Assembly (NCBI GenBank): GCA_003567475.1
Contig: PWZL01000021.1
Location: forward strand, 3,485 to 67,484
Reading direction: 5' to 3'
Length of the DNA: 64,000 bases
DNA from: Gammaproteobacteria bacterium
GTDB taxonomy: Bacteria; Pseudomonadota; Gammaproteobacteria; Steroidobacterales; PWYM01
In this document: positions 6,561-64,000 of the stretch, in pieces
How positions within the stretch are numbered: position 1 is the first letter of the stretch
Layout: each line of letters starts with the position of its first letter
Made by a program: the position numbers and the translations under genes
Notes under the pieces: model-generated
Seen by the model: the letters and a program-made list of their open reading frames with translations, nothing else
Told to the model about the DNA's origin: nothing
Databases searched by the model: none

Positions 6561-6608
6561 GGCAGACTCCCGAACCGCTAGACGCCAAAATCCCTGTCGA
6601 CACCTGAT

Positions 6609-6893: not shown

Positions 6894-6927
6894 TAGTTTT
6901 GCACAAAACTAATTGATGGCATATAAT
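6894..6927 (+). promoter_or_regulatory. sigma70 promoter with overlapping palindromic operator for the marR-ect operon
   Basis: TTGCAC(6899-6904)-17 nt-TATAAT(6922-6927); perfect inverted repeat TAGTTTTG-CA-CAAAACTA (6894-6911) covers the -35. Confidence 0.75.
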
Positions 6928-6938
6928 TTCTGGCTGAC

Positions 6939-7511: not shown

Positions 7512-7593
7512 TGCGCCTCGCCGCCCCGGGCTCTCGCCGCCCGCGGCACTCTCCATTAGCTATCAGATAGACAACAAAAGGCTCACGAAGCAC

Positions 7594-8796: not shown

Positions 8797-9325
8797 AGCG
8801 CTGACCCGCGCCACTGCATCGGCCATCCGCTTTCGTGCTGCGCGGCCCGAAGATGGCGCCGCCATGTGGCGACTCGTTCAAGACATGGGTGGACTCGAAC
8901 TCAACACCGCGTATTTCTACGTGCTGTTCTGCATCGACTTCGCTGAAACCTGTGTCGTGGCCGAAGCGGACAACGGAGAGCTCGCCGGCTTCGTGCTCGG
9001 CCACCGGCCTCCCGCGAGGCCGGATACCGTATTCGTCTGGCAGGTTGGCGTGGCGCCCTGGATGCGCCGCCAGGGTCTGGCAGGGCGACTGCTCGAGGCG
9101 CTGCTGCGCCAGCAGGCACGCCCCGCGCGCTGGCTCGAGGCTACCGTGAGCCCCGACAACACTGCCTCGATGCAGCTGTTCCGCGCCCTCGCCCGCGCCC
9201 ACGACGCGCGGTGCGAGGAAAGCGATTTCATGGACGCCGGACTGTTTCCCGGCGACCACGCGGCCGAGCGGTTGTTCCGCATCGGCCCACTGAACCCATC
9301 ATCAGCACAGGGAAAAACAGTATGA
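8786..9325 (+). CDS. ectA: L-2,4-diaminobutyrate acetyltransferase
   Basis: LELNTAYFY, FAETCVVAE, FVWQVGV, LEATVSPDNTAS; ATG 8786 overlaps the end of ask. Confidence 0.92.
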   Translation: MSPEALTRATASAIRFRAARPEDGAAMWRLVQDMGGLELNTAYFYVLFCIDFAETCVVAEADNGELAGFVLGHRPPARPDTVFVWQVGVAPWMRRQGLAGRLLEALLRQQARPARWLEATVSPDNTASMQLFRALARAHDARCEESDFMDAGLFPGDHAAERLFRIGPLNPSSAQGKTV

Positions 9326-10602
9326 GCATTCCAACCATCGAACGCCTCGAATCGGCAGTCCGCGGCTATGTGCGCAGTTTCCCGTGTGTATTCACACACG
9401 CGAAAGGCGCGCGGATGACCAGTGAGGAGGGTCGCGAATACATCGACTTCTTCGCCGGCGCAGGCGTGATGAACTATGGCCACAATCATCCGGCACTGAA
9501 GACAGCGCTGCTCGAGTACCTCGCCGAAGATCACATCATCCACAGCCTGGACATGGCGACTGCGGCCAAGATCCGCTTCCTCGAGCGCTTCGAGGAGGTC
9601 ATCCTCAAGCCGCGCGGCCTGGACTACCGCGTCCAGTTCCCCGGACCCACGGGCACCAACGCTGTCGAGGCGGCGCTGAAACTCGCGCGCAAAGTCACCG
9701 GCCGTGAGCGCATCCTGTCCTTCACCAATGCCTTCCACGGCATGACGTTGGGCGCACTCGCTGTGACGGGTAACTCGTTCAAGCGCGCCGGTGCCGGCGT
9801 ACCCCTGTCGCATGCCACGATGATGCCATTCGACAGCTACCTTGATGAGGGCGACGAACAGAGCCTCAAGCTGCTGGAGGCGATGCTCGGAGACGAGGGC
9901 TCGGGCATGGACAAGCCCGCCGCCGCCATCATCGAGACGGTTCAGGCTGAAGGCGGGGTGAACGTCGCCCGGATGGAATGGTTGCGGGAACTCGCCGCAA
10001 TCCTCAAACGCCACGATGTGCTGCTGATCGTGGACGATATCCAGGTCGGCTGCGGCCGCACCGGACCGTTCTTCAGCTTCGAACCGGCGGGTATCCAGCC
10101 AGACATCATCTGCCTGTCGAAGTCCTTGAGCGGCTTTGGTCTGCCTCTGGCTGTCACGCTCATGCGCCCAGAGCTCGACGTCTGGGCCCCGGGTGAGCAT
10201 AACGGGACCTTCCGCGGCCACAACCCCGCCTTCGTCACGGCCACAGCGGCGCTGGGCTTCTGGACCGATGACCAGCTCGAGCGCGAAGTCGGGCGTAAGG
10301 CGACGGTGATCGAACAGCGTCTTCACGCACTGGTCGAACGCTTGCCGGTCGAGGCGACCCACCGGGGCCGTGGAATGATCCAGGGCATCGAATTCAGCGA
10401 TCGCACGCTCGCCGCAGAGGCCTCACAAGCGGCATTCCAGCGCGGCCTGATCATCGAAACCGCCGGTATCGACGACCAGGTGTTGAAACTGCTGCCGCCG
10501 TTGATGATTGCCGACGCGGATCTCGCCGCAGGCCTCGATATCGTCGATGCCGCGGTCACTGCGGTGGCCCGACGGGCAGCGCCTGGCCGTAAGGTCGCCT
10601 GA
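9322..10602 (+). CDS. ectB: diaminobutyrate-2-oxoglutarate transaminase
   Basis: ESAVRGYVRSFP, DFFAGAGVMNYGHN, QFPGPTGTNAVEAA, PGEHNGTFRG. Confidence 0.95.
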   Translation: MSIPTIERLESAVRGYVRSFPCVFTHAKGARMTSEEGREYIDFFAGAGVMNYGHNHPALKTALLEYLAEDHIIHSLDMATAAKIRFLERFEEVILKPRGLDYRVQFPGPTGTNAVEAALKLARKVTGRERILSFTNAFHGMTLGALAVTGNSFKRAGAGVPLSHATMMPFDSYLDEGDEQSLKLLEAMLGDEGSGMDKPAAAIIETVQAEGGVNVARMEWLRELAAILKRHDVLLIVDDIQVGCGRTGPFFSFEPAGIQPDIICLSKSLSGFGLPLAVTLMRPELDVWAPGEHNGTFRGHNPAFVTATAALGFWTDDQLEREVGRKATVIEQRLHALVERLPVEATHRGRGMIQGIEFSDRTLAAEASQAAFQRGLIIETAGIDDQVLKLLPPLMIADADLAAGLDIVDAAVTAVARRAAPGRKVA

Positions 10603-10650
10603 GCATCGCCCCGACGTCACCTGATCAAACCACTCCAGGGAAGCCATGAC

Positions 10651-11061
10651 ATGATCGTAAGGACACTGAACGGAACGCTCGGCACCGAGCGCGAAATCGA
10701 CACGCCAGGCTGGACCAGCCGACGACTGCTGCTGAAGAGCGAGAACATGGGTTTCTCGCTGCACGACACGCTGATCAAGCCTGGCGCCGAACTGCCCATG
10801 TGCTATCGCAATCACCTCGAGGCGGTCTACTGCATCGAGGGCGAAGGCGAAGTGGAGACTGTCGCCGACGGTGTCCGCCACCAGATCAAGGCGGGCACCG
10901 TCTACGCACTGGACCAGCACGACGAACACATCCTGCGGGCGCGCACGCAGATGCGCATGGTCTGCGTGTTCAACCCGCCGATTACCGGCCGGGAGGTGCA
11001 CGGCGAAGACGGCGCCTACCCGCTGATCGAGGATGACGAGCCGGTGACCCGCGTCTCCTGA
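10651..11061 (+). CDS. ectC: ectoine synthase
   Basis: [45 protein letters not shown]. Confidence 0.95.
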
Positions 11062-11141
11062 GCCCGCGCGGCCCCCTCCACGGCCTCAGTTTCTGGCCAA
11101 TCGCCGCGATGCCGCACCCTTGACGCCAGTGCCGGGGCAAG

Positions 11142-11726
11142 TCATTTCCGATTGAGAAACACCGCATCATGCGGGGTACGACTACCGCGCAGCGTCAGGC
11201 TTGCATTGATGCCTTCGTCCTGGATCATGGTCGACGGCACGTTCTCGTTCCAATCCATGACGACCTGTCGGCGCGCGATACGCCACTCGCCGTGACGCTT
11301 TTCAAGACGATCGACGTAGCGGCCGCCGAAGATGTAGAGATGCCGACCGCGTTGATCAGGGCCGACGTTGAACTGCTGCATGTAGCTGGAACCGAAAATG
11401 TCATCCATGCGGTCCGGCCGGACGATGTGATAGGCCAGCAGATAACTCTCCGTAAAGGCCACGTCGCCGTCGATCTCCATGTGGACATTGCAGATGGCAT
11501 GAGTGGTCACCTCAAACCACACCTGGATTTCCCGGATGATGTATTCCGCAAACTCCTGGGCATTGCCCTGGAAAATACCATGATCATCGAAACCGTCCTC
11601 GTGATAGACGGTTTTCATCAGTTCGACGTCGCAGCGATCGAGTGCACGGCAGTATCGGGTCAATACGTCGTAGCATTTCTGACGCGCAACGAGTTCGCGA
11701 ATTTCGGCTTCGGTGACGGTGTCCAT
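11142..11726 (-). CDS. SnoaL/NTF2-like family protein
   Basis: RYCRALDRCD, HAICNVHMEIDGDVA, GGRYVDRLEKRHGEWRIARR. Confidence 0.8.
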   Translation of the reverse strand: MDTVTEAEIRELVARQKCYDVLTRYCRALDRCDVELMKTVYHEDGFDDHGIFQGNAQEFAEYIIREIQVWFEVTTHAICNVHMEIDGDVAFTESYLLAYHIVRPDRMDDIFGSSYMQQFNVGPDQRGRHLYIFGGRYVDRLEKRHGEWRIARRQVVMDWNENVPSTMIQDEGINASLTLRGSRTPHDAVFLNRK

Positions 11727-11876
11727 GATTCCCCCATGATGACTGACTGAGGCCTGTACGCACCGGGATAAGTGTGTCGCCCGGATGCCCGCCGATCAAC
11801 ACTCCGCTGCCACCGAACGTCCGCATCCCTGGCGATGCTAGACTCACTGCCCAGCAGACGTCACCTTGGATAGCCG

Positions 11877-51000: not shown

Positions 51001-51456
51001 ATGGACAGCGTCATCACGGCGCGCGTCGGCGCAGCGCGACCGACGCCAGCACACCACCCCGGCCAAGCGCGCTGGGGCACGGTCACACTGACCTGGACCG
51101 GCGCGCTGCTGGCGGCAGGCGCCGGCTGGGCGGTCGCCGCGGCCACTGAGGCGACGCCGGTGGACCCGGAACTCGCCCTGCTGATCCGCGGCATGGCCGG
51201 GATCAAGGCGCTGATCGTGGTGGCGCTGCTCGCGGCGCTGAGCTGGCGGACCCGATGGCACCTGTCACGCCCCCTGTGGGCGGCTTACGCCATGGGCGCC
51301 TGGGGCATGGCCTTCGCGACCCTGCTGATCTGGCAGGCCGCCTTCATCGGCGCCGCCGCGGTATTTTTCCACGTCGCCGAGCTGGCCGTACTCGTCCTGG
51401 CGTGGCGCGACGGTCGCCGGAGTTTCGGCCTGCTCGACTACGCCGGACGGGGCTGA
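51001..51456 (+). CDS. hypothetical membrane protein
   Basis: GGAGGAGG RBS, four hydrophobic segments. Confidence 0.6.
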   Translation: MDSVITARVGAARPTPAHHPGQARWGTVTLTWTGALLAAGAGWAVAAATEATPVDPELALLIRGMAGIKALIVVALLAALSWRTRWHLSRPLWAAYAMGAWGMAFATLLIWQAAFIGAAAVFFHVAELAVLVLAWRDGRRSFGLLDYAGRG

Positions 51457-51502
51457 TCAGCCCCCCCGGCGCCGGCGCGTCACCGCCGTTTTCGAACCCG
51501 GC

Positions 51503-52303
51503 TCAGGGCGCCCCGGCCTTCCGACCGACCGCCTCACCTTCGGCACGGTAATGACCGTTCACCGCCAGCGCAGGCTTGTCGTCCGTCTCGTCGTCACGGC
51601 CGTGTTCATCAGCCGCGGTCGAGGTTGCGGCCTGGCCGTCACCGTCCTTGACGTCCTCGCGCGCGTCGCCGTCAGCAGCACCCGCGTCCTGCAGGACAGG
51701 TGTCTCGGCCGCCGAATCGGCCGCCGGGATGGCCCCCTCCGCTGCGGCACTGGACTCGGCGGCGTGAGCGGCCTGGGCGGGCGGATCGGCGACTTCAGGG
51801 GCGGCCGTCGACTTGGCAGCCTCGGGCTCCTCGGACGCGCGGTCGTGGGCCGGGGTTGCCGCGGCCCCGGCGGCCGCCGCACCCACCGCGGCCCCCGCGA
51901 CGCCCGCGCGCGCCGGATCCGGCCCTGAGGACGCGGTCGCCGACCCGGGCGGATCCCCCGCGTCGTCGGTGCCGGCCTCGGTGTCCGTCACGGCCTCGGT
52001 CAAGCGTCGCCGCTCGGGCTCCGCCTGCAGCACGTCCTGCCGCGGCGCATCGCAGAGCTCGGTGGCGCCGGAGGCGAGGTGCTCATACAGACTGCGGTAG
52101 TCCGCGGTGATCTGGTCGAACAGCTCGCCGGTGTGCTGGAAATGATCCGTGACCTGCTGACGGTAGTCCGCCAGCGCCTGCTTGGCCGCATCCCGCTCAG
52201 CCTCGACCTTGCCGGCACGCGACTTGTCGGACGAGAGCCGGCCGACGGCGAGGCCGATGACCCCACCGGCGACAACCAGAAGCAGGTAGACGAGTATCTC
52301 CAT
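51503..52303 (-). CDS. YhcB/ZapG (DUF1043) family protein with long acidic Ala-rich tail
   Basis: N-terminal TM helix, YRQQVTDHFQHTGELF...YRSLYEHLASGA motif. Confidence 0.8.
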   Translation of the reverse strand: MEILVYLLLVVAGGVIGLAVGRLSSDKSRAGKVEAERDAAKQALADYRQQVTDHFQHTGELFDQITADYRSLYEHLASGATELCDAPRQDVLQAEPERRRLTEAVTDTEAGTDDAGDPPGSATASSGPDPARAGVAGAAVGAAAAGAAATPAHDRASEEPEAAKSTAAPEVADPPAQAAHAAESSAAAEGAIPAADSAAETPVLQDAGAADGDAREDVKDGDGQAATSTAADEHGRDDETDDKPALAVNGHYRAEGEAVGRKAGAP

Positions 52304-52587
52304 GACAACCTCCACGCGGACACACCCGAGCGCCGGGTGACCCGCAACAGTGAACTGCGTCGAGCATAGGCAATGCGTAACGGCTTTACCACCGTATTTT
52401 CCGCAGCGCCACAGGGGTTTGCCTGTCGTGACATTCCCGCTACAGTGCACTCGCCGGATAAGGGGAGGACGTTCACGGCAGGGTCGGCCCGAAGACCTCA
52501 GAACGTGCGGCTCCGGCTTGCAGCAACCGCCCGCGGCGCTCGAAGGACGCGCACGCCGCCGGCCATGCTCCGCGAGGACATGGCAAC

Positions 52588-55500
52588 GTGATCGAAGAGC
52601 CCTCTACCGTGCCCGCGGTGCTGCCGCCGAAGGCGTCCGTCAATCCCCTGCGCACGCGCGCGGACTGGCAGTCCGCGCGTACGGCCTGCGAGACCGACCC
52701 CGGCCGCTACCATGGCGACCTCGCCGCTCACGAGCTGCACTGGTTCGATCCCGCGACAGGCAGCCACGGCGCCTGGCTGACGCTCGACGCCGGCGGCCAC
52801 TGGTCAGGCTGGGACGCGGTCAGCGGGGCTGCCGTCACCGCCGATCATGCCGCTGACTGGCGCCCGTGGCGCTGTGGCCTGGACGACACCGAGGCGCCCT
52901 GGTATCGCTGGTTCGTCGATGCCCGCACCAATGCCTGTTTCAACGAAGTCGACCGGCATGTGCTCGCAGGACATGGCGAAGAGCCCGCGCTGCTGGTGGA
53001 AGGCGATCGCTGGGACCAGTCGCGTGCCGAGGGTCGCGGCGGCCCGGTGGTGTCCTACCCGGTCTCCCGACGCCGGCTGCTGGTGGAGGTTGCCAGCGCC
53101 GCGCTGGTGATGCAGCGCTTGGGCTTGCGGCGGGGTGACCGCATCGCCCTGAACCTGCCGAATATTCCTCAGCAGGTGGTCTGGACTGAGGCGGCCAAGC
53201 GCCTGGGGATCATCTACACGCCGGTGTTCGGCGGTTTCTCCGACAAGACGCTGGCCGATCGCATCCACGATGCCCGTGCCCGCGTGGTGATCACCGCTGA
53301 CGGCGGTTACCGCAACGCCCAGATCGTGCCGTTCAAGGCCGTCTACACGGATCCCGCGCTGGACCAGTATCTGCCAGGCGAGCGTGCGCTCACCGTGGTC
53401 GCCGAGGCGCTGGCAACCCTCGGACTGGGTGCCGAAGCCGTCGAGCGCATTATCGCCTGTGCGGCCGATGCGGTGGCTGGCGAAATCACCGTCGAGCGCC
53501 GGGATGTCATGCGTGGTGTGGGCGTGGCCCTGGGCGAACTGAGCGAGCGCGCCGATCTCGACGCCGCGGCCGCCGGGCGTATCCGCACGACCCTGGCCCG
53601 CGCGCTGGTCGATGCCGGTGCCGACGTCGAGCATGTGATCGTGGTCCGCCACACCGGCCAGGAGGACCTGCCCTGGCGCGAGGGGCGCGATCTCTGGGCT
53701 CACGAACTCCTCGCCGAGGCCACTGAGACACTGCTCGAGGCCGCCCGCGGCGCCGGCATCGAGGTGGCGGACGCCGCCGGCCTGCTTGCCCTGCCGGATG
53801 CCGACTGCGTCCGTGCCGTCTGGGCCGCCTGTCCGCCAGCGCCGCTCGACGCCGAATATCCGCTGTTCTTCATCTACACCTCCGGCTCCACCGGCAAGCC
53901 CAAAGGCGTCGTGCACGTGCACGGCGGCTACACGGCCGGTATCGCACACAGCATGCGCATCAGCTTCGATGCCCGGCCGGGCGATGTCATCTATGTGGTG
54001 GCCGACCCCGGCTGGATCACCGGCCAGAGCTACATGCTCTCCGCGGCACTGACTACCCGGGTGACCAGTGTCCTGGCCGAGGGTGCGCCGGTATTCCCCT
54101 CCGCGGGGCGCTTCGCCTCGATCATCGAGCGCTATGGCGTGACCATCTTCAAGGCCGGCGTCACGTTCCTCAAGACCGTGATGACCGATCCGCAGAACGT
54201 CGAGGACGTGCGCCTCTATGACCTCTCCTCGCTGCGGGTGGCGACGTTCTGTGCCGAGCCCACCTCACCGGCGGTGCAGCAGTTCGCGATGGAGCTGATG
54301 ACCCCCTGGTACATCAACTCCTACTGGGCCACCGAGCACGGCGGCATCGTCTGGACACATTTCTATGGCAACGGCGACTTCCCGCTGCGCGCCGACGCCC
54401 ACACCTGGCCCCTGCCGTGGGTGATGGGCGACGTCTGGCTGCCGGATGGCCCGCCCGCCGCTGACGGCCGGCTGCCCTGGCGCCGTGCCGACGATGGTGA
54501 GAAAGGCGAGATCGTGATCCATGCGCCCTACCCTTACCTCGCCCGCACCATCTGGGGCGACGCCGAGCGCTTCGTGGTCGAGGATGACCGCGTAAGCCCC
54601 GGCTGGCGCGGCGACTTCGCCCGTTACCGCGACACCTACTGGGCGCGCTGGCAGGACACCTGGGCCTATACCCAGGGCGATTTCGCCATCCGCCATGCCG
54701 ATGGCAGCTTTTCGCTGCACGGGCGCAGCGATGATGTGATCAACGTCTCCGGCCATCGCCTGGGCACCGAGGAGATCGAGGGCGCGATCCTGCGTGACAA
54801 GCAGCTCAATCCGGGCTCGCCGGTCGGTAACGTGATCGTGGTCGGCGCGCCGCACCGCGAGAAGGGCCTGACGCCGCTGGCTTTCGTGACGCCGGCACCG
54901 GGCCGACGCCTTACGGTCGATGACCGCCGACGGCTGATCGAGTTGGTGCGCCAGGAGAAAGGCGCCGTGGCCGTCCCCGAGGACTTCCTGGAGGTGCCGG
55001 CGTTCCCCGAAACGCGCAGCGGGAAATACCTGCGTCGCATGGTGCGCGCGCTGGTCGAAGGCCAATCCCCGGGCGACACCACCACGCTACGCAACCCCGA
55101 ATCGATTCCCCCGCTCGAACGGGCGATCGGCGAGTGGATCGCGCGCCAGAAGATCCGCGAGACACAGCGCCTGCTGGAGCGTGGCCGCTACTTCCATATC
55201 CACTACCACCCGGTGCCGCTCGCAGGCCACGAAGACTCACGGCTGGCGCTGGTGACGGTCAGCAATCCGCCGGTCAACGCGCTCAACGAGCGCGCGCTCG
55301 ACGAACTCGTCACCGTGGTCGAGCACCTGTCGCGCCGGCCCGAGGTGGTGGCGGTGATCTTCACCGGCGAGGGCACCTCCTCGTTCGTGGCCGGCGCAGA
55401 CATTCGCCAGCTGCTCGAAGACGTGCACACGCTCGACGAGGCCATCACGCTGCCCAACGTCGCCCACCTGGCCTTCCGCAGCATCGAGCGCATGGACAAG

Positions 55501-58065
55501 CCCTGCATCGCCGCGATCAACGGCGTGGCGCTCGGCGGCGGCATGGAATTCGCGCTGGCCTGTCACCTGCGCCTGGCCGAACCGGTGGCGAGCTTCGGCC
55601 AGCCGGAGATCCGCCTGAACCTGCTGCCCGGCTACGGCGGCACGCAGCGGCTGACCCGGCTGCTGGCCGACCGCGACGGGCTGACGGGCCTGGTGGGGGC
55701 CGTGGAGCTGCTGATGGGCGGGCGCAGTGTCGAGGCCCCGGAGGCGCTGCGGCTCGGACTGATCGACGGCATCGCCGAGGGCGGTGATGATGTCGTGAGC
55801 CTCGCGGCCGGCATGGTCTACGACTGGCTGCGCGACCCCGCAGACAGCGCCCTGGGTCAGCGCTGGCAGCGCGTACGGGCGCAGCGGCTGGCCTGGGAGC
55901 AGCCCGGCCGCCTCAATCTCGAGGCCGCCCTGGCCAGCGAGCAGGTGGCCGCCCTGCTCGCCCAGGCCACGGCAGTGGGACGCAGCGCCGCGGCCACGCG
56001 GGTGCTCGAGGCTGTACGCACCGGCTGGGAACAGGGACTGGCCGCCGGCCTCAAGCACGAAGCCGCGCTGTTCGCTGCGGCGGTGATCGACCCCGAGGGC
56101 GGCAAGGCCGGTATCCGCGCCTTCTTCGACCGGCGCAGCCCGCCGCTGCCCGTGCGCTTCGGCCAGCCGCGCTCACTCGAGGAGGTCCCGGCGCTGATCG
56201 CCCGAGGCGAGCTGCTGCCGGTCGGCGCGCCCTTCTATCCGGGCCTGACCCCCCTGCCACGCTGGCAGATCGGCCAGGGCGTGGTGCGCGACGCGGCCAC
56301 CGGTGCGCCCCGCCATGGCGACCCCGCCGAGGTCGAGTGCGAAGTCATCGTGCCGGTGGAACGCCCGGAGGCCGACGAGGTGCTGCTGTACATCCTCGCC
56401 TCCGAGGTCAATTTCAACGACATCTGGGCCATCCAGGGCATCCCCGTATCCCCGTTCGACAGTCACGACCGCGACGTGCAGGTCACCGGCTCAGGCGGTG
56501 TGGCCCTGATCGCGGCCCTCGGCGATTCGGTGAAGCGCGAGGGACGGCTGCGCGTGGGTGACCTGGTGTCGATCTACTCCGGCCAGTCGACCCTGCTCTC
56601 GCCCTTCGCCGGCCGCGACCCGATGTCGGCAGATTTCCGCATCCAGGGCTACGAGACCCCGGACGGCAGCCACCAGCAGTTCCTCCGGGTGCAGGCACCC
56701 CAGTGCCATCCGCTGCCCCCGGATGTCCCGCTGGAGGCGGCCGGCTCCTACATCCTCAATCTCGGCACCGTTGTCCGCGCGCTCTTCACCACGCTGGGTA
56801 TCGAGCCGGGTCGGCGGATGTTCGTCGAAGGCGCGGCCACGGGAACCGGCCTGGAGGCGCTCAAGACGGCGGCGGCGCAGGGACTGCGGGTCACCGGCAT
56901 GGTCTCCAGCCCCGCCCGCGCGAACGTCGTACGGCAGTACGGCGCGGTCGGGGCGATCGACCGACGCGACCCGGCGCTGGCCGATTGCTTCCGGCCGGTT
57001 CCGGGCGAGCGTGAGGCGATTCTGGCCTGGGAGCGCGCCGGTGAGCCGCTGCTCGAGGCCTTCCGGACCCAGCATGGCGGCCAGCTCGCCGACTATGTGG
57101 TCTCGCACGCCGGCGAGCAGGCGTTCCCGCGCAGCTTCCAGCTGCTCGACCAGGGCGGCTGCCTGGCCTTTTACGGCGCCTCCAGCGGCTATCACTTCAC
57201 CTTTGCCGGCAAACCCGGCGCCGTCCGTGTGGAGGAGATGCTGCAGCGCGCCCGGCTGCGGGCCGGCGAGGCCGTGCTGGTGTACTACGGCCCGGAGCTC
57301 GACGCCGAGGCCCTGGTCGACCCCCACGGTATCGAGGCGATCGAGGCCGCGGCCGCGCGCGGGGCGCGGGTGGCCGTGGTCTGCTACAGCGAGGCTCAGC
57401 GGGAGTTCGTGCGTTCGCTGGGCTTCGGTGACCGGCTCGCCGGGGTGGTTTCGATCGAAGAGCTGTCCCGCCGGGCCACGATGGACTTCGAGTGGCCGGA
57501 CACCATGCCCGGCCTGCCGGAGGTGCGCGACGATACGGCAGCCTTCCGCGAAGCCGTGCGGGCCTTCCAGGAGCGCACCATCAAGCCGCTGGGTCAGGCG
57601 GTTGGCAAGCTGCTGCGCTCGGCCGACAACCCGCGTGGGGCGCCCGAACTGATCATCGAGCGCGCCGGTCACGATGCACTGGCCGTCTCGACCTCGCTGG
57701 TCCAGCCGTTCACCGGCCGGGTGGTGTACGCCGAAGACATGCACGCACGCCGCTACAGCTTCTACGCCCCCCAGGTCTGGACCCGCCAGCGGAAGATTCT
57801 GCTACCCACCTGCTCGATTCTTGGCACGCACCTGTGCAACCCCTACGAGGTCACGCAGATGAATCGCATGCTGGCGAGCGGCCAGCTGGAGATCACGCCG
57901 CCGACCCTGGTCGACTGGCACGAGTTGCCGGAAGCCCACCAGGCGATGTGGGAGAACCGTCACGCCGGCGCGACCTATGTGGTCAATCACGCACTGCCGG
58001 CCGCGGGCCTGCGCAGTCGCGACGAACTTTTTGAAGCTTGGGCAGCGGGAGGTCAGGGAACATGA
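52588..58065 (+). CDS. pcs: trifunctional propionyl-CoA synthase (acyl-CoA synthetase + enoyl-CoA hydratase + enoyl-CoA reductase)
   Basis: 1825 aa; YTSGSTGKPKG and PETRSGK (ACS), GGGMEFALACH and GQPEIRLNLLPGYGG (crotonase), SEVNFNDIW/GYETPDGS/EGAATGTG (Ccr-like reductase). Confidence 0.92.
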   Translation: MIEEPSTVPAVLPPKASVNPLRTRADWQSARTACETDPGRYHGDLAAHELHWFDPATGSHGAWLTLDAGGHWSGWDAVSGAAVTADHAADWRPWRCGLDDTEAPWYRWFVDARTNACFNEVDRHVLAGHGEEPALLVEGDRWDQSRAEGRGGPVVSYPVSRRRLLVEVASAALVMQRLGLRRGDRIALNLPNIPQQVVWTEAAKRLGIIYTPVFGGFSDKTLADRIHDARARVVITADGGYRNAQIVPFKAVYTDPALDQYLPGERALTVVAEALATLGLGAEAVERIIACAADAVAGEITVERRDVMRGVGVALGELSERADLDAAAAGRIRTTLARALVDAGADVEHVIVVRHTGQEDLPWREGRDLWAHELLAEATETLLEAARGAGIEVADAAGLLALPDADCVRAVWAACPPAPLDAEYPLFFIYTSGSTGKPKGVVHVHGGYTAGIAHSMRISFDARPGDVIYVVADPGWITGQSYMLSAALTTRVTSVLAEGAPVFPSAGRFASIIERYGVTIFKAGVTFLKTVMTDPQNVEDVRLYDLSSLRVATFCAEPTSPAVQQFAMELMTPWYINSYWATEHGGIVWTHFYGNGDFPLRADAHTWPLPWVMGDVWLPDGPPAADGRLPWRRADDGEKGEIVIHAPYPYLARTIWGDAERFVVEDDRVSPGWRGDFARYRDTYWARWQDTWAYTQGDFAIRHADGSFSLHGRSDDVINVSGHRLGTEEIEGAILRDKQLNPGSPVGNVIVVGAPHREKGLTPLAFVTPAPGRRLTVDDRRRLIELVRQEKGAVAVPEDFLEVPAFPETRSGKYLRRMVRALVEGQSPGDTTTLRNPESIPPLERAIGEWIARQKIRETQRLLERGRYFHIHYHPVPLAGHEDSRLALVTVSNPPVNALNERALDELVTVVEHLSRRPEVVAVIFTGEGTSSFVAGADIRQLLEDVHTLDEAITLPNVAHLAFRSIERMDKPCIAAINGVALGGGMEFALACHLRLAEPVASFGQPEIRLNLLPGYGGTQRLTRLLADRDGLTGLVGAVELLMGGRSVEAPEALRLGLIDGIAEGGDDVVSLAAGMVYDWLRDPADSALGQRWQRVRAQRLAWEQPGRLNLEAALASEQVAALLAQATAVGRSAAATRVLEAVRTGWEQGLAAGLKHEAALFAAAVIDPEGGKAGIRAFFDRRSPPLPVRFGQPRSLEEVPALIARGELLPVGAPFYPGLTPLPRWQIGQGVVRDAATGAPRHGDPAEVECEVIVPVERPEADEVLLYILASEVNFNDIWAIQGIPVSPFDSHDRDVQVTGSGGVALIAALGDSVKREGRLRVGDLVSIYSGQSTLLSPFAGRDPMSADFRIQGYETPDGSHQQFLRVQAPQCHPLPPDVPLEAAGSYILNLGTVVRALFTTLGIEPGRRMFVEGAATGTGLEALKTAAAQGLRVTGMVSSPARANVVRQYGAVGAIDRRDPALADCFRPVPGEREAILAWERAGEPLLEAFRTQHGGQLADYVVSHAGEQAFPRSFQLLDQGGCLAFYGASSGYHFTFAGKPGAVRVEEMLQRARLRAGEAVLVYYGPELDAEALVDPHGIEAIEAAAARGARVAVVCYSEAQREFVRSLGFGDRLAGVVSIEELSRRATMDFEWPDTMPGLPEVRDDTAAFREAVRAFQERTIKPLGQAVGKLLRSADNPRGAPELIIERAGHDALAVSTSLVQPFTGRVVYAEDMHARRYSFYAPQVWTRQRKILLPTCSILGTHLCNPYEVTQMNRMLASGQLEITPPTLVDWHELPEAHQAMWENRHAGATYVVNHALPAAGLRSRDELFEAWAAGGQGT

Positions 58066-61000
58066 CAGGCAGCCAGGACACAGGCGGCGATCGCCGCCGG
58101 ACATCTCGCGGGCGACTGGCGGGCAAGATCGCCCTGGTCACCGGTGCAGGCGGCAACATCGGCCGGGTGGTCTGCGAACGCTTCCTGAAGGAAGGCGCCA
58201 CCGTGGTCATGACCGGGCGCACGCGCGAGAAACTGGAGGCGCTGCGCAGCGACCTTCGGGAACGCCTGCGGGTGCCCGCGGCGCGCATGCCGGTGGTGGT
58301 CATCGACGGCGCCGAACCCGGGCAGGTGCGCGTCGGCATCGAGAACATCATCGCCACGCACGGGCGAATCGACGTACTGGTCAACAACGCCGGCTCAGCC
58401 GGCCCGAAGTGCCCGCTGGCCGACCTGCCGATCACGCCGGACGACCTTGCGGCATTGAAGGCCGCCGGCATCGAGGAGCACGAGACCGTGCCCATGGCGG
58501 CGCGCAATTTGCTGGGCATCGCCTGGAACTTCGTACGCGCGGCGGCCCCGCACCTGCCGCCCGGCGCCAGCGTGATCAACGTCTCCACGATTTTCTCGCG
58601 AACCCAGTACTACGGCCGGGCCGCCTACGTCGTGCCCAAGGCGGCACTGAACACGTTCTCGCGCCAGCTGGCGCTAGAACTCGGGCCGAAAGGCGTCCGC
58701 GTCAACACCGTGTTTCCGGGACCGATCGCCTCCGAGCGCATCCGGACCGTGTTCGCCGCCATGGACACGCTGCGCAGCCAGCCCCAGGGCACGACGGCCG
58801 ACGAGTTTCTCGGGCTGATGACCCTGGCACGGCCCCAGGACAGCGCGGCACCCGCCTACGGCTTCCCGACCATCGATGACGTGGCCAATACCCTGGTGTT
58901 CCTCGCCAGCGATGAGTCGGCCGCCATGAACGGCCACAACATCGAGGTCACCCATGGCATGCAGGTGCGCCAGGAGTCGCGCAGCACGGCCATCTCGCGA
59001 CCGGAACTGCGCACCGTCGACGGCGTGGGCGTCCGGATCCTGCTGGCAGCCGGCGATCAGGTGAGCGACGCCCTCACCGTGGCCCGGGTGCAGGCCGACT
59101 GCGGCGCCGAGGTGCTGCTTGGGCTGGGCTCTGAGGAATCGGTCCGCGCGGCCCGCGAGGCTCTGGAGGACACGGGCCGAGACCAGCGGATCCGCACGGT
59201 ATTGCTGGACCGGACCCGGCCCGACACCGTCAGGGCAGTGTTCGAGGCGTTATGCGACGCCGGGGAGGCGCTGCATGGGGCGATCATCATGCCGGCCTAC
59301 GGGGCCTGGCGCTTCCGCGGCACCCTGGTCGGGGACAGTGACGCCGACGTGGCCGCGTTCCTCGACGGCGAGCTGGTCGGCAGCCTGGTCATCGCCCGTG
59401 AACTGACGCGGTTCTGGAAGCGGATCGGAGACGCGCTGCGGCTGGCGCCGAGCGTGGTGTTCGTCTCCAATGGCGACGACGGCCACGGCAATGTCTATGC
59501 CGACATCCTGCGGGCGGCCACCGAGGAACTCTGCCGCATCTGGCGCAACGAAACCGAAGTGCAACAGCAGGCGGGCGAGCGCCGGTTCCAGGAATGGTCC
59601 AACCAGGTGATCCGCTGGCCCAACCGCGAAGGCGAGGAAGTGCCCTTCGCCGCCGGGCAGGCGGCCAGACTGCTGTATACCCGGCGGCGGATCCGGCAGG
59701 TGAACCTCTACCTGCCGGCCTCGATTGCCGAGGCGACCGGTTCACGGCGCGCGATCTTCGGCTGGATGGAAAGCCTGATGGGCCTGCACCTCGGCAAGGT
59801 CGCGCTGATCACCGGCGGCTCGGCAGGCATCGGCGGACAGCTTGGCCGGCTGCTGGCCATTGGCGGGGCACGGGTCATGCTGGTGGCGCGCCGCGCCGAT
59901 CAGCTGGCCGAGATGCGTGCGTCCATCGTGCGGGAACTCGAAGACATCGGCTATTACGCGGCCGAAGAACGGGTCCAGGTGATGGCCGACATTGATGTCG
60001 CCGACGAGGCGGCGCTGGCCCGCTCGGTGGCGCAGACCATGGCGAAGTTCGGGCGTCTCGACTATCTGATCAACAACGCCGGCATTGCCGGCGCCGAGCA
60101 GATGGTCGTCGATATGGAGGTGGACGACTGGCGCAACACCCTGAATGCCAATCTGGTCTCGAACTTCTCACTGATCGAGAAAGTCGTGCCGATCATGAAG
60201 GCGCAGGGCAGTGGCTACATTCTGAACGTCTCTTCCTATTTCGGCGGTGAAAAATACATCGCCGTGCCCTATCCCAACCGGGCCGATTACGCCGTCTCCA
60301 AGGCCGGCCAGCGCGCCCTGACCGAAAACCTCGCGCGCTTCGTCGGCCCGGAAATCCAGATCAATGCCATCGCTCCCGGCCCGGTCGACGGCGACCGGCT
60401 GCGGGGTACGGGCGGCAAGCCGGGGCTGTTCGAGCGTCGCGGGCGGCTGATCCTCGAGAACCGGCGTCTCAATGCCCTGTACGCCGCAGTCATCGAGGCC
60501 CTGAAGGCCGGCCATGACATCGACGCGATCCTGCAGGTGCTCGCCAGCAACGATGCGGCGGCGATCGCCTCCGAGGAGCGCGCACCGCCGCAGTTGCGCG
60601 CCTTCGCCGAACGCGTGCGCAACAAGGGCCTGGAACTCCAGGAAGCCGCCAGTTCAGGACGCTTCCTGATGAACCGCGCGATCGCCCAGCGGCTGATCGG
60701 GCGCCTGCGTCTCGGTGGCCGGTTCCTCGCCGAGAGCCAGAGCGCCGCTTACGGCGACGACTGGTTGACGGCCCTGCCCGCGCCGCCCGAACCGTTCGTC
60801 GCGCAGAGCGACGTGCTGAAGGCGGCGGAGAAGATCCGTACCGGCGTGCTGGAGATCCTGCATCTCAACAACATGCCCAGTGAACTCGAAGTGGCGCTGG
60901 CCACCGTGTACTTCCTGGCCGACCGGGCGGTCTCCGGCGAAACCTTCCACCCCTCCGGCGGACTGCACCAGGAACGCACCATCACCGAACGTGAGCTGTT

Positions 61001-61757
61001 CGGCCGGGCCAAGCCCGAGCGGGTCTCCCAGATGGAGGGGCAGACGATCTGGCTGATTGGCGAATTCCTGACAGCCAACCTGGCACGCGCCGCGCGGCTG
61101 GCCCTGGAACACAGCCGCGTGGGCAGGATCATGCTGCTGACCCAGACCCCGGCCGCTGCGCATCAGGTGCGCGAGCTGCTGCAGATCGTGCCCGGTGTCG
61201 AGCGGATCCATCCGATCTGTGTCGGCGACGATCTCGAAGCCGGCATGGATGAGGCACTGCGCGTGGGCGGCACGCCGGCGGCGGTCGTCTCCACGCCGTT
61301 CATGCCGCTGCCCAAGGCGCTGTTCGCCCACGAAGACGAGCAGGGCCTCGACGCGGCCGGTTTCGCCGGGCTGGTCGAGGCCCATCTCACGCACCACTTC
61401 CGCGTCGCCCGCAAGGTCAGCCTGCTCGATGGCGTACGCCTGGTGCTGGTAACGCCCGACGTGCCGGTCCACCCCACGCATGCGGAATTCGCTCTGGCGA
61501 ATTTCATCAAGACCACGCTGCATGCGCTGACGGCCACCTTGGGCGTCGAGAACGAGCGGCTGGTGCACGGCACACCGGTCAACCAGGTGAACCTGACCCG
61601 CCGGGTGCGTTCGGAGGAGCCGCGCGACCTGGGTGAGCAGGCCGAGGAGCAGGAACGTTTCGCGCACGCTGTGCTGCTGGCCAGTGCACCCATCGCCGGA
61701 CACAAGGACAGCCGTTACCGCGCGCGCATTTATCGGGGGCTGGCGATCACAGTGTAA
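58062..61757 (+). CDS. mcr: bifunctional malonyl-CoA reductase
   Basis: ~1231 aa tandem SDR domains: TGAGGNIG and YYGRAAYVVPKAAL; TGGSAGIG and YPNRADYAVSKAGQRA; ATGA overlap with pcs. Confidence 0.92.
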   Translation: MTGSQDTGGDRRRTSRGRLAGKIALVTGAGGNIGRVVCERFLKEGATVVMTGRTREKLEALRSDLRERLRVPAARMPVVVIDGAEPGQVRVGIENIIATHGRIDVLVNNAGSAGPKCPLADLPITPDDLAALKAAGIEEHETVPMAARNLLGIAWNFVRAAAPHLPPGASVINVSTIFSRTQYYGRAAYVVPKAALNTFSRQLALELGPKGVRVNTVFPGPIASERIRTVFAAMDTLRSQPQGTTADEFLGLMTLARPQDSAAPAYGFPTIDDVANTLVFLASDESAAMNGHNIEVTHGMQVRQESRSTAISRPELRTVDGVGVRILLAAGDQVSDALTVARVQADCGAEVLLGLGSEESVRAAREALEDTGRDQRIRTVLLDRTRPDTVRAVFEALCDAGEALHGAIIMPAYGAWRFRGTLVGDSDADVAAFLDGELVGSLVIARELTRFWKRIGDALRLAPSVVFVSNGDDGHGNVYADILRAATEELCRIWRNETEVQQQAGERRFQEWSNQVIRWPNREGEEVPFAAGQAARLLYTRRRIRQVNLYLPASIAEATGSRRAIFGWMESLMGLHLGKVALITGGSAGIGGQLGRLLAIGGARVMLVARRADQLAEMRASIVRELEDIGYYAAEERVQVMADIDVADEAALARSVAQTMAKFGRLDYLINNAGIAGAEQMVVDMEVDDWRNTLNANLVSNFSLIEKVVPIMKAQGSGYILNVSSYFGGEKYIAVPYPNRADYAVSKAGQRALTENLARFVGPEIQINAIAPGPVDGDRLRGTGGKPGLFERRGRLILENRRLNALYAAVIEALKAGHDIDAILQVLASNDAAAIASEERAPPQLRAFAERVRNKGLELQEAASSGRFLMNRAIAQRLIGRLRLGGRFLAESQSAAYGDDWLTALPAPPEPFVAQSDVLKAAEKIRTGVLEILHLNNMPSELEVALATVYFLADRAVSGETFHPSGGLHQERTITERELFGRAKPERVSQMEGQTIWLIGEFLTANLARAARLALEHSRVGRIMLLTQTPAAAHQVRELLQIVPGVERIHPICVGDDLEAGMDEALRVGGTPAAVVSTPFMPLPKALFAHEDEQGLDAAGFAGLVEAHLTHHFRVARKVSLLDGVRLVLVTPDVPVHPTHAEFALANFIKTTLHALTATLGVENERLVHGTPVNQVNLTRRVRSEEPRDLGEQAEEQERFAHAVLLASAPIAGHKDSRYRARIYRGLAITV

Positions 61758-61799
61758 GCCGCGGGATAATCCCATGGTGTTTTCTGCGGCAGGCCGCTG

Positions 61800-62789
61800 A
61801 TGTTTCATATCGTCAATACCGATGTTTTCGATCGCGAGAGCCTGGATCGACTGTGCCACCTGAGCGATGCCGTGCGGCACATCGCCAAGGCAACCGAGGG
61901 CGCACGCTTCCTGCAGCAGCTGCTGCCGACCAAGCGCGCGATGCTGTATTTCACCCAACCCTCGACACGCACGTTTCTCTCCATGAACAACGCCTGTCAT
62001 GTGCTCGGCGTGCGAACCAGCGAAATCCGCGACCCCGAGGTGTCGTCGGAAATCAAGGGCGAGACGTTCGAAGACAGCATCCGTACGTTCAGTTCCTACG
62101 TCGACCTGATCGTGATGCGTACGCCGGAACCCGGCTATGCCGCCCGCGCCGCAGCGCTGATGGATTCAATTCCGCGGCCGGTGCCGATCGTCAATGCCGG
62201 CAGTGGCCGCGATCAACACCCCACGCAGGCGCTGCTGGACATCTACACGCTTGAGCGCAGCTTCGAGCAGCGCGGTGGCATCGATGGCAAGACCATCGGC
62301 ATGATGGGGGACCTGCGTCGCGGGCGCACCGTGCGCTCACTGAGTCGCCTGATGCGACATTACCGCGATGTGCGCCTCGTATTCATCGCGCCACCAGCCT
62401 TCGAGATGGAGCCGGACATCAAGGCGTTCCTTGACGAGTACGGCGTGGCCTGGTCTGAAACCGCAGCACTGCATGAGGCCCTGCCGGCACTGGATGCGCT
62501 GTATGTCACCCGCATGCAGTTCGAGCATGACACCGACGGCGAGTCCTCGCGAGTCGACCTGGCGCAATTCAGCATCGGCCCGGCAGAGCTCGGGATTCTG
62601 CGGCCCGACACCGTGCTGATGCATCCCCTGCCCCGCGGCCGCGAGATCCATCCGTCCGTGGACGGCGACGCGCGTGCCATGTACTGGCGACAGGAACGCA
62701 ATGGCATGTGGATGCGCGTGGCATTGATCGCCACGCTGTTCGGCGCACAGGACCGTATCCTCGAGGCCGTGGACCGCTACGACCACTGA
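61800..62789 (+). CDS. pyrB: aspartate carbamoyltransferase catalytic subunit
   Basis: FTQPSTRT, HPTQALLD, GDLRRGRTVRSL, HPLPR. Confidence 0.92.
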   Translation: MFHIVNTDVFDRESLDRLCHLSDAVRHIAKATEGARFLQQLLPTKRAMLYFTQPSTRTFLSMNNACHVLGVRTSEIRDPEVSSEIKGETFEDSIRTFSSYVDLIVMRTPEPGYAARAAALMDSIPRPVPIVNAGSGRDQHPTQALLDIYTLERSFEQRGGIDGKTIGMMGDLRRGRTVRSLSRLMRHYRDVRLVFIAPPAFEMEPDIKAFLDEYGVAWSETAALHEALPALDALYVTRMQFEHDTDGESSRVDLAQFSIGPAELGILRPDTVLMHPLPRGREIHPSVDGDARAMYWRQERNGMWMRVALIATLFGAQDRILEAVDRYDH

Positions 62790-62817
62790 TCACCACCGCC
62801 CCCTCTGGAGCGTACTT

Positions 62818-63249
62818 ATGAGCAACAGCCTGAAGACCGTCGCCATTCTCGTCGCACTCTTGCTGGCGACACTCGCGGGCCGCGCACTGGTCGCGGAGAC
62901 CGCTGATGACGCTGAGCCGCGGCCAGGCTACATGATCGTGATCGGGACCGGTGTGGACTCCCCCCGCATGGGTCCCTACGCGGCGGCCACCGTTCCGTTG
63001 CTGCTCGAGTTCGGCGGTGAGCTGCTGTTCATCAGTGAGGAACACGGTGCGGAGATTCTGGAGGGCGGGCCGTTCGAGAGCTCGATCCGCGTGTTCCGCT
63101 TTCCTTCGCTACAGCACGCCCGTGACTTCTACTACTCGGAGGCCTACCAGCGGGAGGCGATACCCTTGCGCGAGGGTCTGGGCCAGCTCGATGTCATCGT
63201 CAGCGACGCCTTCGTGCCTGATCCGCGCTGGCTGCAGGCTGGCGATTGA
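62818..63249 (+). CDS. DUF1330-like protein with signal peptide
   Basis: LEGG...RFPSLQHARDFYYSEAYQ...R pattern. Confidence 0.7.
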   Translation: MSNSLKTVAILVALLLATLAGRALVAETADDAEPRPGYMIVIGTGVDSPRMGPYAAATVPLLLEFGGELLFISEEHGAEILEGGPFESSIRVFRFPSLQHARDFYYSEAYQREAIPLREGLGQLDVIVSDAFVPDPRWLQAGD

Positions 63250-63256
63250 GCGGCGA

Positions 63257-64000
63257 TCAGGCCGCGCCGGCCGCCGCCGGCGCCAGGCAGTCGATCACCC
63301 GCGCCACTTCCGCCGGGCTGCCAAGCACCACGGGGGTACGCTGGTGCAGCGCCGTGGGCTGGATCTCCAGGATCCTGCCCCTGCCATCCATCGCCTGACC
63401 GCCCGCCTGCTCGATGATCATGGCCATCGGGTTGGCCTCGTAGAGCAGCCGCAGCTTGCCCTGCGGCGCCTGCTCGGTCGGCGGGTACATGAACACGCCG
63501 CCCTTGAGGAGGGTGCGATGCACGTCGGCCACCATGGCACCCACATACCGGCTCGAGTAACCGTGCTGCTGCGCCCAGTCGAGATAGGCGCGATACCCGG
63601 CTGGAAAGCTCTGCCGGTTGCCTTCGTTCAGGGAATAGCAGCGGCCGGTCTCTGGGATCTTAAGGCCCTGCTCGACACGAATGAACGCACCGATCGAGGT
63701 GTCGAGCACGAACATGTCGACGCCCTCGCCGGTCGTCATGACGAGGACCGTCGAGGAACCGTAGAGCACATAGCCGGCGGCGACCTGCCGGTCACCGCGC
63801 TGCAGTACCGAGTCTTCGGTACGGCTGCTGCGCCGATCATGGCGCAGAACACTGAAAATCGTCCCGACGCCTCCGGCGACGTCGAGGTTCGAAGAGCCGT
63901 CGAGCGGATCGAACAGTACGCAGTATCCGCGCTCCCGGCCATGGTCTGCAGTGATCACCACCGGCTCTGCGGCCTCTTCAGAGGCAAGCACCATGACCCC
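63257..64000 (-). CDS. fbp: fructose-1,6-bisphosphatase class 1 (5' end outside window)
   Basis: FDPLDGSSN, RYVGAMVADVHRTL, GKLRLLYEANPMA. Confidence 0.93.
   Translation of the reverse strand, partial: GVMVLASEEAAEPVVITADHGRERGYCVLFDPLDGSSNLDVAGGVGTIFSVLRHDRRSSRTEDSVLQRGDRQVAAGYVLYGSSTVLVMTTGEGVDMFVLDTSIGAFIRVEQGLKIPETGRCYSLNEGNRQSFPAGYRAYLDWAQQHGYSSRYVGAMVADVHRTLLKGGVFMYPPTEQAPQGKLRLLYEANPMAMIIEQAGGQAMDGRGRILEIQPTALHQRTPVVLGSPAEVARVIDCLAPAAAGAA

Follow-up and report, generated by a model that had tools for sequence, protein, structure and literature searches.

The window analysed here, a 64,000-nucleotide stretch of contig PWZL01000021.1 (contig C7) from the gammaproteobacterial genome assembly GCA_003567475.1 (G000 hereafter; 3.06 Mb in 102 contigs, 98.4% complete), carries on its plus strand the genes of propionyl-CoA synthase (pcs) and bifunctional malonyl-CoA reductase (mcr), both enzymes of the 3-hydroxypropionate (3-HP) bi-cycle of Chloroflexus. 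The pair is a genuine two-gene operon, in which the start of mcr overlaps the end of pcs.

The upstream gene, pcs (52588..58065), starts with GTG and encodes 1825 amino acids (aa), as read from its open reading frame (ORF), its Pfam architecture and its match to PDB entry 6eqo (2452.7 bits; collinear, residues 23-1822 against 25-1843). Its Pfam matches follow in the order ACAS_N, AMP-binding and AMP-binding_C, then ECH_1, then ADH_zinc_N, which is the ligase-hydratase-reductase succession on one polypeptide of ~1800 aa that marks a trifunctional Pcs. The ligase domain (3-hydroxypropionyl-CoA synthetase; 52855..55026, ~aa 90-813) is outlined by ACAS_N at aa 90-119, AMP-binding, and AMP-binding_C at aa 745-813; the dehydratase domain, of enoyl-CoA hydratase fold (55237..55842, ~aa 884-1085), by ECH_1 at aa 884-1085; and the acrylyl-CoA reductase domain, of Ccr-like MDR fold (56305..57969, ~aa 1240-1794), by ADH_zinc_N and ADH_zinc_N_2, with a match to 4gi2 at aa 1240-1542 and a TIGR01751 score of 201 bits, under the cut-off of that model. 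Invariant in an alignment of 13 Pcs sequences were the SGK motif with its lysine K813, the crotonase glutamates E987 and E1007, and the stretch GAATGTG at G1415-G1421; the lysine, the two glutamates and the glycine nucleotide-binding motif are what we take to be the defining catalytic motifs of the Pcs domains. Judged by homology, the predicted Pcs would convert 3-HP, together with ATP, CoA and NADPH, into propionyl-CoA.

The downstream gene, mcr, was listed among the ORFs as 58038-61757 (plus strand, TTG start, 1239 aa). Because its solved relatives in PDB begin to align only at residue 23 of the TTG reading, the likely start is the ATG at 58062, giving a protein of 1231 aa (58062..61757). 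Bases 58060-58069 read acATGAcagg, where this ATG (58062-58064) overlaps the pcs stop codon TGA (58063-58065) as ATGA (58062..58065); a Shine-Dalgarno-like site, GGGAGG, lies within the end of pcs (58047..58052, plus strand) with a spacer of 9 nt to the ATG. Over its full length Mcr matched 8hjw (1213.1 bits) and 8hi4 (1211.9 bits), and two adh_short stretches were recognized by Pfam. The N-terminal half (58062..59726), predicted to reduce malonate semialdehyde to 3-HP, matched 6k8v (584.2 bits, residues 24-573), and the C-terminal half (59727..61757), predicted to reduce malonyl-CoA to malonate semialdehyde, matched 6k8s (769.6 bits, residues 562-1239). In all 52 aligned sequences, the motifs TGxxGNxG (27-34), NNAG (108-111) and Y189-x3-K193 of the N-terminal half and TGGSAGIG (584-591), NNAG (671-674) and Y743-x3-K747 of the C-terminal half were invariant. 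The protein therefore has the make-up of a bifunctional Mcr, namely a length of ~1220 aa, halves matching separately solved fragments and intact motifs in both active SDR modules, and its homology predicts an NADPH-dependent conversion of malonyl-CoA to 3-HP. The pcs-mcr junction is supported by the window and by two further loci (L026 and L027), while contigs of sequencing runs X1 and X3 both end at 58049-58078, none spanning the ATGA by 31 letters on each side. The original prediction of a full-length three-domain Pcs and a multi-SDR Mcr, with catalytic motifs and joined by an ATGA overlap, was thus borne out by Pfam, PDB matches, alignments and the sequence itself.

The host is a bacteriochlorophyll-type phototrophic gammaproteobacterium without RuBisCO: pufL and pufM are both on contig C90, and no RuBisCO large subunit was found in the 98.4%-complete G000. 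Of the markers that had been proposed for a genome search, pufLM were thus present and rbcL was not found. As had also been proposed, the window holds no other gene of the bi-cycle, in that the genome-wide HpcH, CoA_transf_3, Carboxyl_trans and MM_CoA_mutase matches are all on other contigs (the family scan covered 20 of the ~51 window ORFs).

One reading offered by the original prediction was a complete 3-HP bi-cycle encoded elsewhere in the genome. Such a cycle, or another closed cycle built on these genes, would mean autotrophy outside Chloroflexota, and some of its parts are at hand: pcs, mcr, acetyl-CoA carboxylase (ACC), both the methylmalonyl-CoA epimerase and the methylmalonyl-CoA mutase (MCM) that the bi-cycle requires, one HpcH/CitE-like lyase and eight family-III CoA-transferases. 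'Complete' 3-HP pathways are moreover claimed for some proteobacterial metagenome-assembled genomes (MAGs) and MAGs of aerobic anoxygenic phototrophs (AAPs) in PMC9802188 and PMC13702023. However, when all CoA_transf_3 genes of G000 (eight) were scored for Mct, the best reached 107.9 bits against a cut-off of 725, and Mch (PF19315) was represented only by single-MaoC, half-length matches (profile positions 20-168 and 20-183 of 353). The single lyase has RipC as its best NCBIfam match (177.4 bits against a cut-off of 375) and falls below every curated cut-off; among PDB entries it matched 3qll (150 bits), the Mcl 4l9y (138.7 bits) and the Chloroflexus-type 4l7z (84 bits). Flanking it are a TonB_C gene on one side and, on the other, a gene for a Rieske oxygenase, past which comes one for a TonB-dependent receptor. 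The lyase was rejected as a Pcs-linked malyl-CoA lyase, for it occurs in all seven genomes sampled from the genus, with or without Pcs. As a candidate for SmtAB, a tandem CoA-transferase pair beside acyl-CoA dehydrogenases on contig C85 gave no equivalog match, no SmtAB-specific model being behind that comparison; the stretch in question (C85:12109-15748, locus L019) consists of an acyl-CoA dehydrogenase gene followed by two tandem family-III CoA-transferase genes. Lacking Mct, a full-length Mch, a canonical propionyl-CoA carboxylase (PCC; see below) and a specific lyase among its identified genes, G000 lends the complete bi-cycle no support, and we regard it as extremely improbable.

The second reading on offer was a route from acetyl-CoA and two bicarbonates to succinyl-CoA via ACC, PCC and methylmalonyl-CoA, that is, the first half of the Chloroflexus bi-cycle. 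Three PF01039 matches were found in G000, of which two are short and were read as accA and accD, and the third is a long carboxyltransferase on contig C8. The latter is of the 3-methylcrotonyl-CoA carboxylase (MCC) type: its score is 802.5 bits with 3u9r but 226.7 bits with 3n6r, a PCC-beta from Ruegeria; entry 9tps, named 'propionyl CoA carboxylase beta', also scored 793.9 bits, and the biology behind that entry could not be checked. The MCC-like carboxylase is located at C8:6200-9892. Genes next to the carboxyltransferase encode an acyl-CoA dehydrogenase and a MaoC hydratase as well as a biotin carboxylase/biotin carboxyl carrier protein, and a tblastn search with this biotin carboxylase found just one other such domain in G000, on C99 and read as accC, hence no third biotin carboxylase. 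The model TIGR01117 separates the two types, giving ~280-300 bits for MCC-like proteins, while canonical PCC-beta proteins from relatives reach 795-802 bits; at 281.2 bits against ~800 in PCC-bearing genomes, no canonical PCC was found in G000. It is textbook knowledge that MCC enzymes carboxylate 3-methylcrotonyl-CoA and not propionyl-CoA.

For propionyl-CoA, an intact outlet of another kind was present. The genes prpB, prpC and prpD are adjacent on contig C23 (50621-54387) and score 498.6, 711 and 756.7 bits against NCBIfam equivalog cut-offs of 353, 550 and 575, respectively, so that the methylcitrate operon is complete with all three genes over their cut-offs. Since no PCC was found and prpBCD is intact, propionyl-CoA is likely converted to pyruvate and succinate. 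In favour of the succinyl-CoA route, an epimerase-MCM-MeaB operon is kept on contig C47 (epimerase 133.1 bits, cut-off 115; MCM 1240.5 bits, cut-off 876), the MCC-like carboxylase might accept propionyl-CoA, and PCC-beta is the usual arrangement among other Pcs-bearing genomes (29 of 33; see below). Set against these are the missing PCC-type carboxyltransferase and third biotin carboxylase in G000, the substrate of MCC enzymes, and two further Pcs-bearing genomes of the genus, G001 (100% complete) and G025, where the only long carboxyltransferase is likewise MCC-like and both PCC-beta and MCM are missing. The ACC/PCC route is therefore at odds with the gene content found here, and we consider it unlikely. 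Of the genes proposed for the genome search, mcm and aceA (isocitrate lyase, 792.8 bits) were present, and the search for pccAB found no canonical PCC. The C47 stretch (3754-11807; loci L022 and L134) continues after epimerase-MCM-MeaB with a same-strand gene for a 1467-aa protein resembling nonribosomal peptide synthetases, in which adenylation domains are combined with a luciferase-like monooxygenase domain of MupA/Atu3671 type.

The distribution of these outlets was compared over seven genomes of the genus (G000, G001, G025, G042, G059, G073 and G086). G000, G001 and G025 (90% complete) have pufLM, Pcs with Mcr, and PrpB, without PCC-beta; MCM is present in G000, while G001 and G025 have no MCM and only an IcmF-like match. 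G073 (87% complete) has pufLM and PrpB, without Pcs and Mcr or PCC-beta, and again with an IcmF-like match as the only MCM relative. On the other side, G042 (94%) and G086 (85%) have pufLM and PCC-beta, without Pcs and Mcr or PrpB, the MCM of G042 scoring 830.5 bits (below cut-off and split over contigs) and G086 having Ccr, RuBisCO and MCM. G059 (93%) has PCC-beta, RuBisCO and an MCM match split over contigs, without pufLM, Pcs and Mcr, or PrpB. TIGR01117 scores fell accordingly, at ~280 bits in G000, G001 and G025 and 795-802 bits in G042, G086, G059 and also G081. PCC-beta and PrpB are thus mutually exclusive in the seven genomes (three against four), with pcs-mcr only on the PrpB side and PrpB over its cut-off in all three Pcs-bearing genomes. 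Being drawn from seven related genomes, this pattern amounts to one or two events. Within this one genus, carbon modules form a mosaic.

RuBisCO was found in two of the four genus genomes without Pcs and in none of the three with Pcs, and Ccr only in the Pcs-less G086. Such a distribution could point to a pure redox valve, in which three NADPH would be burnt per acetyl-CoA under light-driven over-reduction, the carbon gain being incidental and respired again; the Calvin cycle of purple non-sulfur bacteria provides a parallel. The absence of RuBisCO from the gene content of G000 and the near-confinement of Pcs to pufLM holders (see below) agree with this explanation. Yet these counts are very small and come from related genomes, oxygen can serve aerobic phototrophs as an electron acceptor, and the methylcitrate cycle would give back two of the three reducing pairs. 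A valve of this kind, which we judge to be quite improbable as the whole explanation, overlaps with the methylcitrate reading rather than excluding it.

The PyrB-like gene that lies downstream of mcr was examined in Pcs-less genus members as a possible empty site. It has no ZapG-like, DUF1330 or fructose-bisphosphatase gene nearby in them; the neighbourhood being a different one, gain and loss are indistinguishable and the approach was discarded. G042 has two copies, on contigs C184 (L130) and C216 (L129), with 95% and 80% identity to that of the window, and the 95% copy is accompanied by DUF1330 and fructose-bisphosphatase genes on a contig that begins 11 bp before the PyrB-like gene, exactly where mcr would end. 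As this bin may mix populations or have lost the contig of the module, the absence of Pcs from G042 is insecure.

Beyond the genus, a pattern scan with one genome per species found relatives of Pcs in at least 568 genomes, of which the best 80 loci were examined, and a protein search returned 1190 clusters at E <= 1e-50 among 8000 scored candidates. That homologs occur sporadically, as first stated, was an understatement, given that at least 568 species genomes encode Pcs. In 59 of the 80 loci mcr lies directly downstream of pcs on the same strand, and in one (L088) it lies upstream; in the other 20 it was not found, seven of these having less than 1200 bp of downstream sequence. Among the 73 loci with enough downstream sequence, 13 have no adjacent mcr, namely ten of Chloroflexota plus L047, L069 and L078. 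The flanking genes of the window are conserved only in L026 and L027.

For propionyl-CoA outlets and phototrophy, 33 of the 80 Pcs-bearing genomes were picked for taxonomic spread before any result was seen. PCC-beta was found in 29 of them, the four without it being the genomes of L039, L045, L053 and L069. PrpB exceeded its cut-off in four, which are those of L039, L045 and L053 (all without PCC-beta) and that of L046 (with PCC-beta); the genome of L069 has neither. Nearly every Pcs holder therefore has a PCC-beta or a PrpB outlet. Both markers were scored in 36 genomes, of which 6 have PrpB but not PCC-beta; the PCC-less, methylcitrate-type pairing is a minority arrangement. PufLM was found in 31 of the 33 comparison genomes (35 of all 37 Pcs-bearing genomes tested), the exceptions being the genomes of L047 and L078, which are also among those without adjacent mcr. 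In a sample of 151 genomes from the order of the window, 24 have pufLM; Pcs occurs in four, all with pufLM, and in none of the 127 without. The two exceptions, L078 (a record named Aneurinibacillus danicus) and L047 (a Nevskiaceae MAG), carry Pcs relatives of 60-67% identity with no mcr within 3-6 kb downstream, and in the Pcs phylogeny the Bacillota copy (L078) is grouped with a sequence from Chloroflexia.

Loci with Pcs and no adjacent mcr (13 of 73) raise the question of scavenging or detoxification, whereby Pcs would mainly assimilate 3-HP or acrylate from outside the cell, with exudates of algae or cyanobacteria as one potential source, leaving Mcr a minor or balancing role. Pcs alone is enough for 3-HP assimilation, and catabolism typically disposes of propionyl-CoA through the methylcitrate cycle. 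Catabolism that starts from 3-HP, however, needs no NADPH-consuming malonyl-CoA reductase, whereas here mcr is translationally coupled to pcs, follows it in 59 of 80 loci, retains all its catalytic motifs and appears to have been transferred along with it. We hold this explanation, too, to be unlikely.

On balance, we think it somewhat probable that the pcs-mcr operon of this RuBisCO-less phototroph feeds propionyl-CoA into the methylcitrate cycle, serving the co-assimilation of CO2 and not an autotrophic cycle. In the proposed sequence, ACC would carboxylate acetyl-CoA with bicarbonate to malonyl-CoA, Mcr would reduce malonyl-CoA with two NADPH to 3-HP, and Pcs would activate, dehydrate and reduce 3-HP (with ATP, CoA and NADPH) to propionyl-CoA. 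The reactions of ACC, Mcr and Pcs are established and sum to the conversion of acetyl-CoA, bicarbonate, two ATP (one to AMP) and three NADPH into propionyl-CoA. Propionyl-CoA and oxaloacetate would then pass through PrpC, PrpD, aconitase and PrpB to pyruvate and succinate, and succinate would regenerate oxaloacetate, returning two reducing pairs. The net conversion would be acetyl-CoA + CO2 + 2[H] to pyruvate, at a cost of about three ATP equivalents that light-driven ATP synthesis could supply, and a photoheterotroph would gain some CO2 co-assimilation and an outlet for NADPH. What becomes of propionyl-CoA, and how the module relates to light, we infer from gene content only. An ATP cost borne by light would fit the near-restriction of the module to holders of reaction centres and the daytime up-regulation of the 3-HP genes in Porphyrobacter ULC335 reported in PMC10674011.

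Several observations weigh against this proposal. The epimerase-MCM-MeaB operon kept in G000 would be sensible if propionyl-CoA were still carboxylated, perhaps by the MCC-like enzyme. PrpBCD is also found in G073, which has no Pcs, and is therefore the general propionyl-CoA outlet of the lineage, with no tie to the module. As the genome also has isocitrate lyase, growth on acetate does not require the Mcr-Pcs route. The three PCC-less, Pcs-bearing genomes of the genus are kin and count as one event, G042 may be a mixed bin, and the genomes, including the 33 used for comparison, are drafts. As to origin, both trees described below were built on the 80 best hits only, a sample biased toward close hits.

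Phylogenies of Pcs and Mcr were built with FastTree, rooted on Chloroflexota and given SH-like supports. The Pcs tree has 80 rows (L104, with an internal stop, was dropped), and the Mcr tree has 52, after removal of L028, L036, L052, L053, L060, L063, L064, L082 and L094, whose mcr is cut or split between frames. For Pcs, a 14-row clade contains the window, L026 and L027 nested among 11 rows that all come from Gemmatimonadota (support 99-100); in agreement, the Mcr of the window sits in an 11-row clade with eight Gemmatimonadota (support 100). PufM has other relatives: the named sequences closest to that of G000 carry labels such as Woeseiaceae, Alsobacter, Rhodoferax and Ectothiorhodospira, with no Gemmatimonadota among those named in the top 120 matches. 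A tblastn comparison of 45 ORFs of C90 with the 80 Pcs loci gave only three unrelated matches, so that no gene of the photosynthesis cluster was located within 6 kb of pcs and physical linkage was rejected. Because both genes nest among Gemmatimonadota sequences, the operon appears to have passed in one piece between that phylum and this genus, independently of the photosynthesis genes, and the nesting suggests a transfer into the gammaproteobacterium.

Upstream of pcs, a ZapG-like gene on the minus strand is accompanied by genes for a Sel1-repeat protein, an FKBP and phosphate transport; downstream, an aspartate/ornithine carbamoyltransferase-like (PyrB-like) gene follows 42 nt after mcr, with a DUF1330 gene and a fructose-bisphosphatase gene. 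The GC content of the pcs-mcr pair is 0.69-0.71, against 0.666 for the genome. No tRNA gene was found in the window, the search for flanking repeats gave nothing beyond low-identity alignments of the sort common in GC-rich DNA and the resemblance between the two SDR modules within mcr, with no insertion scars, and no transposase or integrase domain was detected among the 10 neighbouring ORFs scanned. In these respects the absence of mobile-element traces noted at the outset was confirmed, and so was the gammaproteobacterial setting, the closest named records among the matches listed being labelled Gammaproteobacteria bacterium. A promoter and terminator scan of 51400-63400 was uninformative, with no promoter-like site and a single terminator-like site, inside mcr and on the wrong strand.

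Sequencing runs labelled soda lake, alkali sediment and salt lake contained 0.95-0.97 of the sampled words. A carbonate-rich habitat, hinted at earlier, fits these labels and the Mrp-like cluster in the window, although the best DNA holder may be the source sample and hence not independent. That cluster (1159-6704) is of the Mrp antiporter type, with two Proton_antipo_M genes and an Oxidored_q2 gene, and the stretch 7327-11061 holds aspartokinase-like and class-III aminotransferase-like (EctB-like) genes with small ORFs, compatible with an ectoine cluster. Runs labelled gut metagenome (X5, X8, X10 and X12, from one study) contained 0.13-0.74 of the sampled words. An RNA-library run, X11, gave mismatch-free contigs inside pcs (54968-55203) and inside mcr (60043-60284 and 60719-60948), available as contigs only; it was rejected as evidence of expression, as equally good contigs occur in neighbouring genes, DNA carry-over is possible, and level and strand are unreadable. 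One 664-nt contig of X11 shows ten G>A differences over a 70-nt part of the ZapG-like gene (51776-51845), with none in DNA runs at the same places; variation between strains, an error in the contig or a clustered change could account for them.

The pcs-mcr pair is a known, widespread module of AAPs, reported from 2022 to 2026, and is here placed in a new host lineage. Mcr, Pcs and Mct are reported from Alpha- and Gammaproteobacteria (PMC9802188), and 3-HP markers from Pseudomonadota and Gemmatimonadota known as aerobic anoxygenic phototrophs (preprint 10.64898/2026.09.02.748891); the 3-HP trait is described as predictive of AAP MAGs, with expression almost confined to these (PMC13702023). PCC was not detected in bloom-associated AAPs (PMC11089705), and 3-HP steps and the methylcitrate cycle are listed as separate theoretical building blocks in PMC8307300. 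An Mcr-Pcs route combined with the methylcitrate cycle was found assigned to no organism in the excerpted literature, which is a weak basis for calling the combination unpublished. Modestly new are the PCC-less, methylcitrate-type wiring and the Gemmatimonadota-related origin of the operon.

Marker surveys count mcr plus pcs as 3-HP carbon fixation, and recent papers differ on the hidden autotrophy of phototrophic heterotrophs. G000 is a clean counter-example, with an intact, coupled pcs-mcr and no second cycle, not even PCC, and its gene content therefore supports the pair as a portable acetyl-CoA-to-propionyl-CoA module of light-harvesting heterotrophs. More tentatively, and with somewhat less confidence than we attach to the fate of propionyl-CoA in G000, Mcr-Pcs may be wired to the methylcitrate cycle here and, separately, in some Steroidobacteraceae/Acidibacter MAGs, as an oxygen-tolerant, ATP-driven route from acetyl-CoA and bicarbonate to pyruvate. 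If so, the job of pyruvate synthase would be done in an aerobic, light-powered cell, and a two-gene module would plug into whichever propionyl-CoA outlet its recipient already has. Should the methylcitrate wiring be real, bicarbonate carbon would end up in C1 of pyruvate with one CO2 per turn instead of two, the budgeting of bicarbonate uptake for such bacteria would change, and pathway engineers would have a natural aerobic route from acetyl-CoA to pyruvate.

Compared with the bi-cycle of Chloroflexus aurantiacus, G000 has orthologous Mcr and Pcs (Pcs ~61-62% identical) and shares ACC, epimerase and MCM. However, pcs and mcr are unlinked in all 10 Chloroflexota loci with at least 3.2 kb of downstream sequence and linked in the window, and without Mct, a full-length Mch, PCC or a clear Mcl among the genes found, neither cycle can close as described. 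Another counterpart is the pair of AAP Alphaproteobacteria (the Erythrobacter sp. NAP1 Pcs 6eqo, the Porphyrobacter dokdonensis Mcr 6k8s/6k8v, and Porphyrobacter sp. ULC335), which consists of the same full-length, collinear enzymes, in pcs-then-mcr order, in hosts with pufLM and no RuBisCO. G000 shows this partial 3-HP module pattern throughout: mcr comes straight after pcs, reaction centre genes of type II are present, and RuBisCO was not found. A host of the ULC335 type is regarded as without a full fixation pathway in PMC10674011. The alphaproteobacterial Pcs is ~61-63% identical to that of the window and the host class differs; the sampled sphingomonad and Erythrobacter genomes have PCC-beta and no PrpB, the reverse of G000.

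Closest in sequence among the best 80 loci, outside the genus, are MAGs of phototrophic Gemmatimonadota (such as L028-L030 and L084, under the labels Gemmatimonas or Gemmatimonadales), with 69-75% identity in Pcs and 70-73% in Mcr, the same gene order and pufLM, in a different phylum. Their pcs and mcr alignments are 63-126 nt apart (measured between alignment ends, not mapped start codons), in contrast to the overlap in the window, and all seven sampled Gemmatimonadota genomes have PCC-beta and none PrpB, again the reverse of G000. Alike in gene content are the Pcs-bearing Steroidobacteraceae/Acidibacter MAGs of L039, L045 and L053, which, like G000, are gammaproteobacterial, have pufLM and PrpB over its cut-off, and gave no PCC-beta. 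Since their Pcs belongs to another clade, with 66-68% identity to that of the window, the combination of a methylcitrate-type outlet with no PCC would have arisen separately in the two groups.

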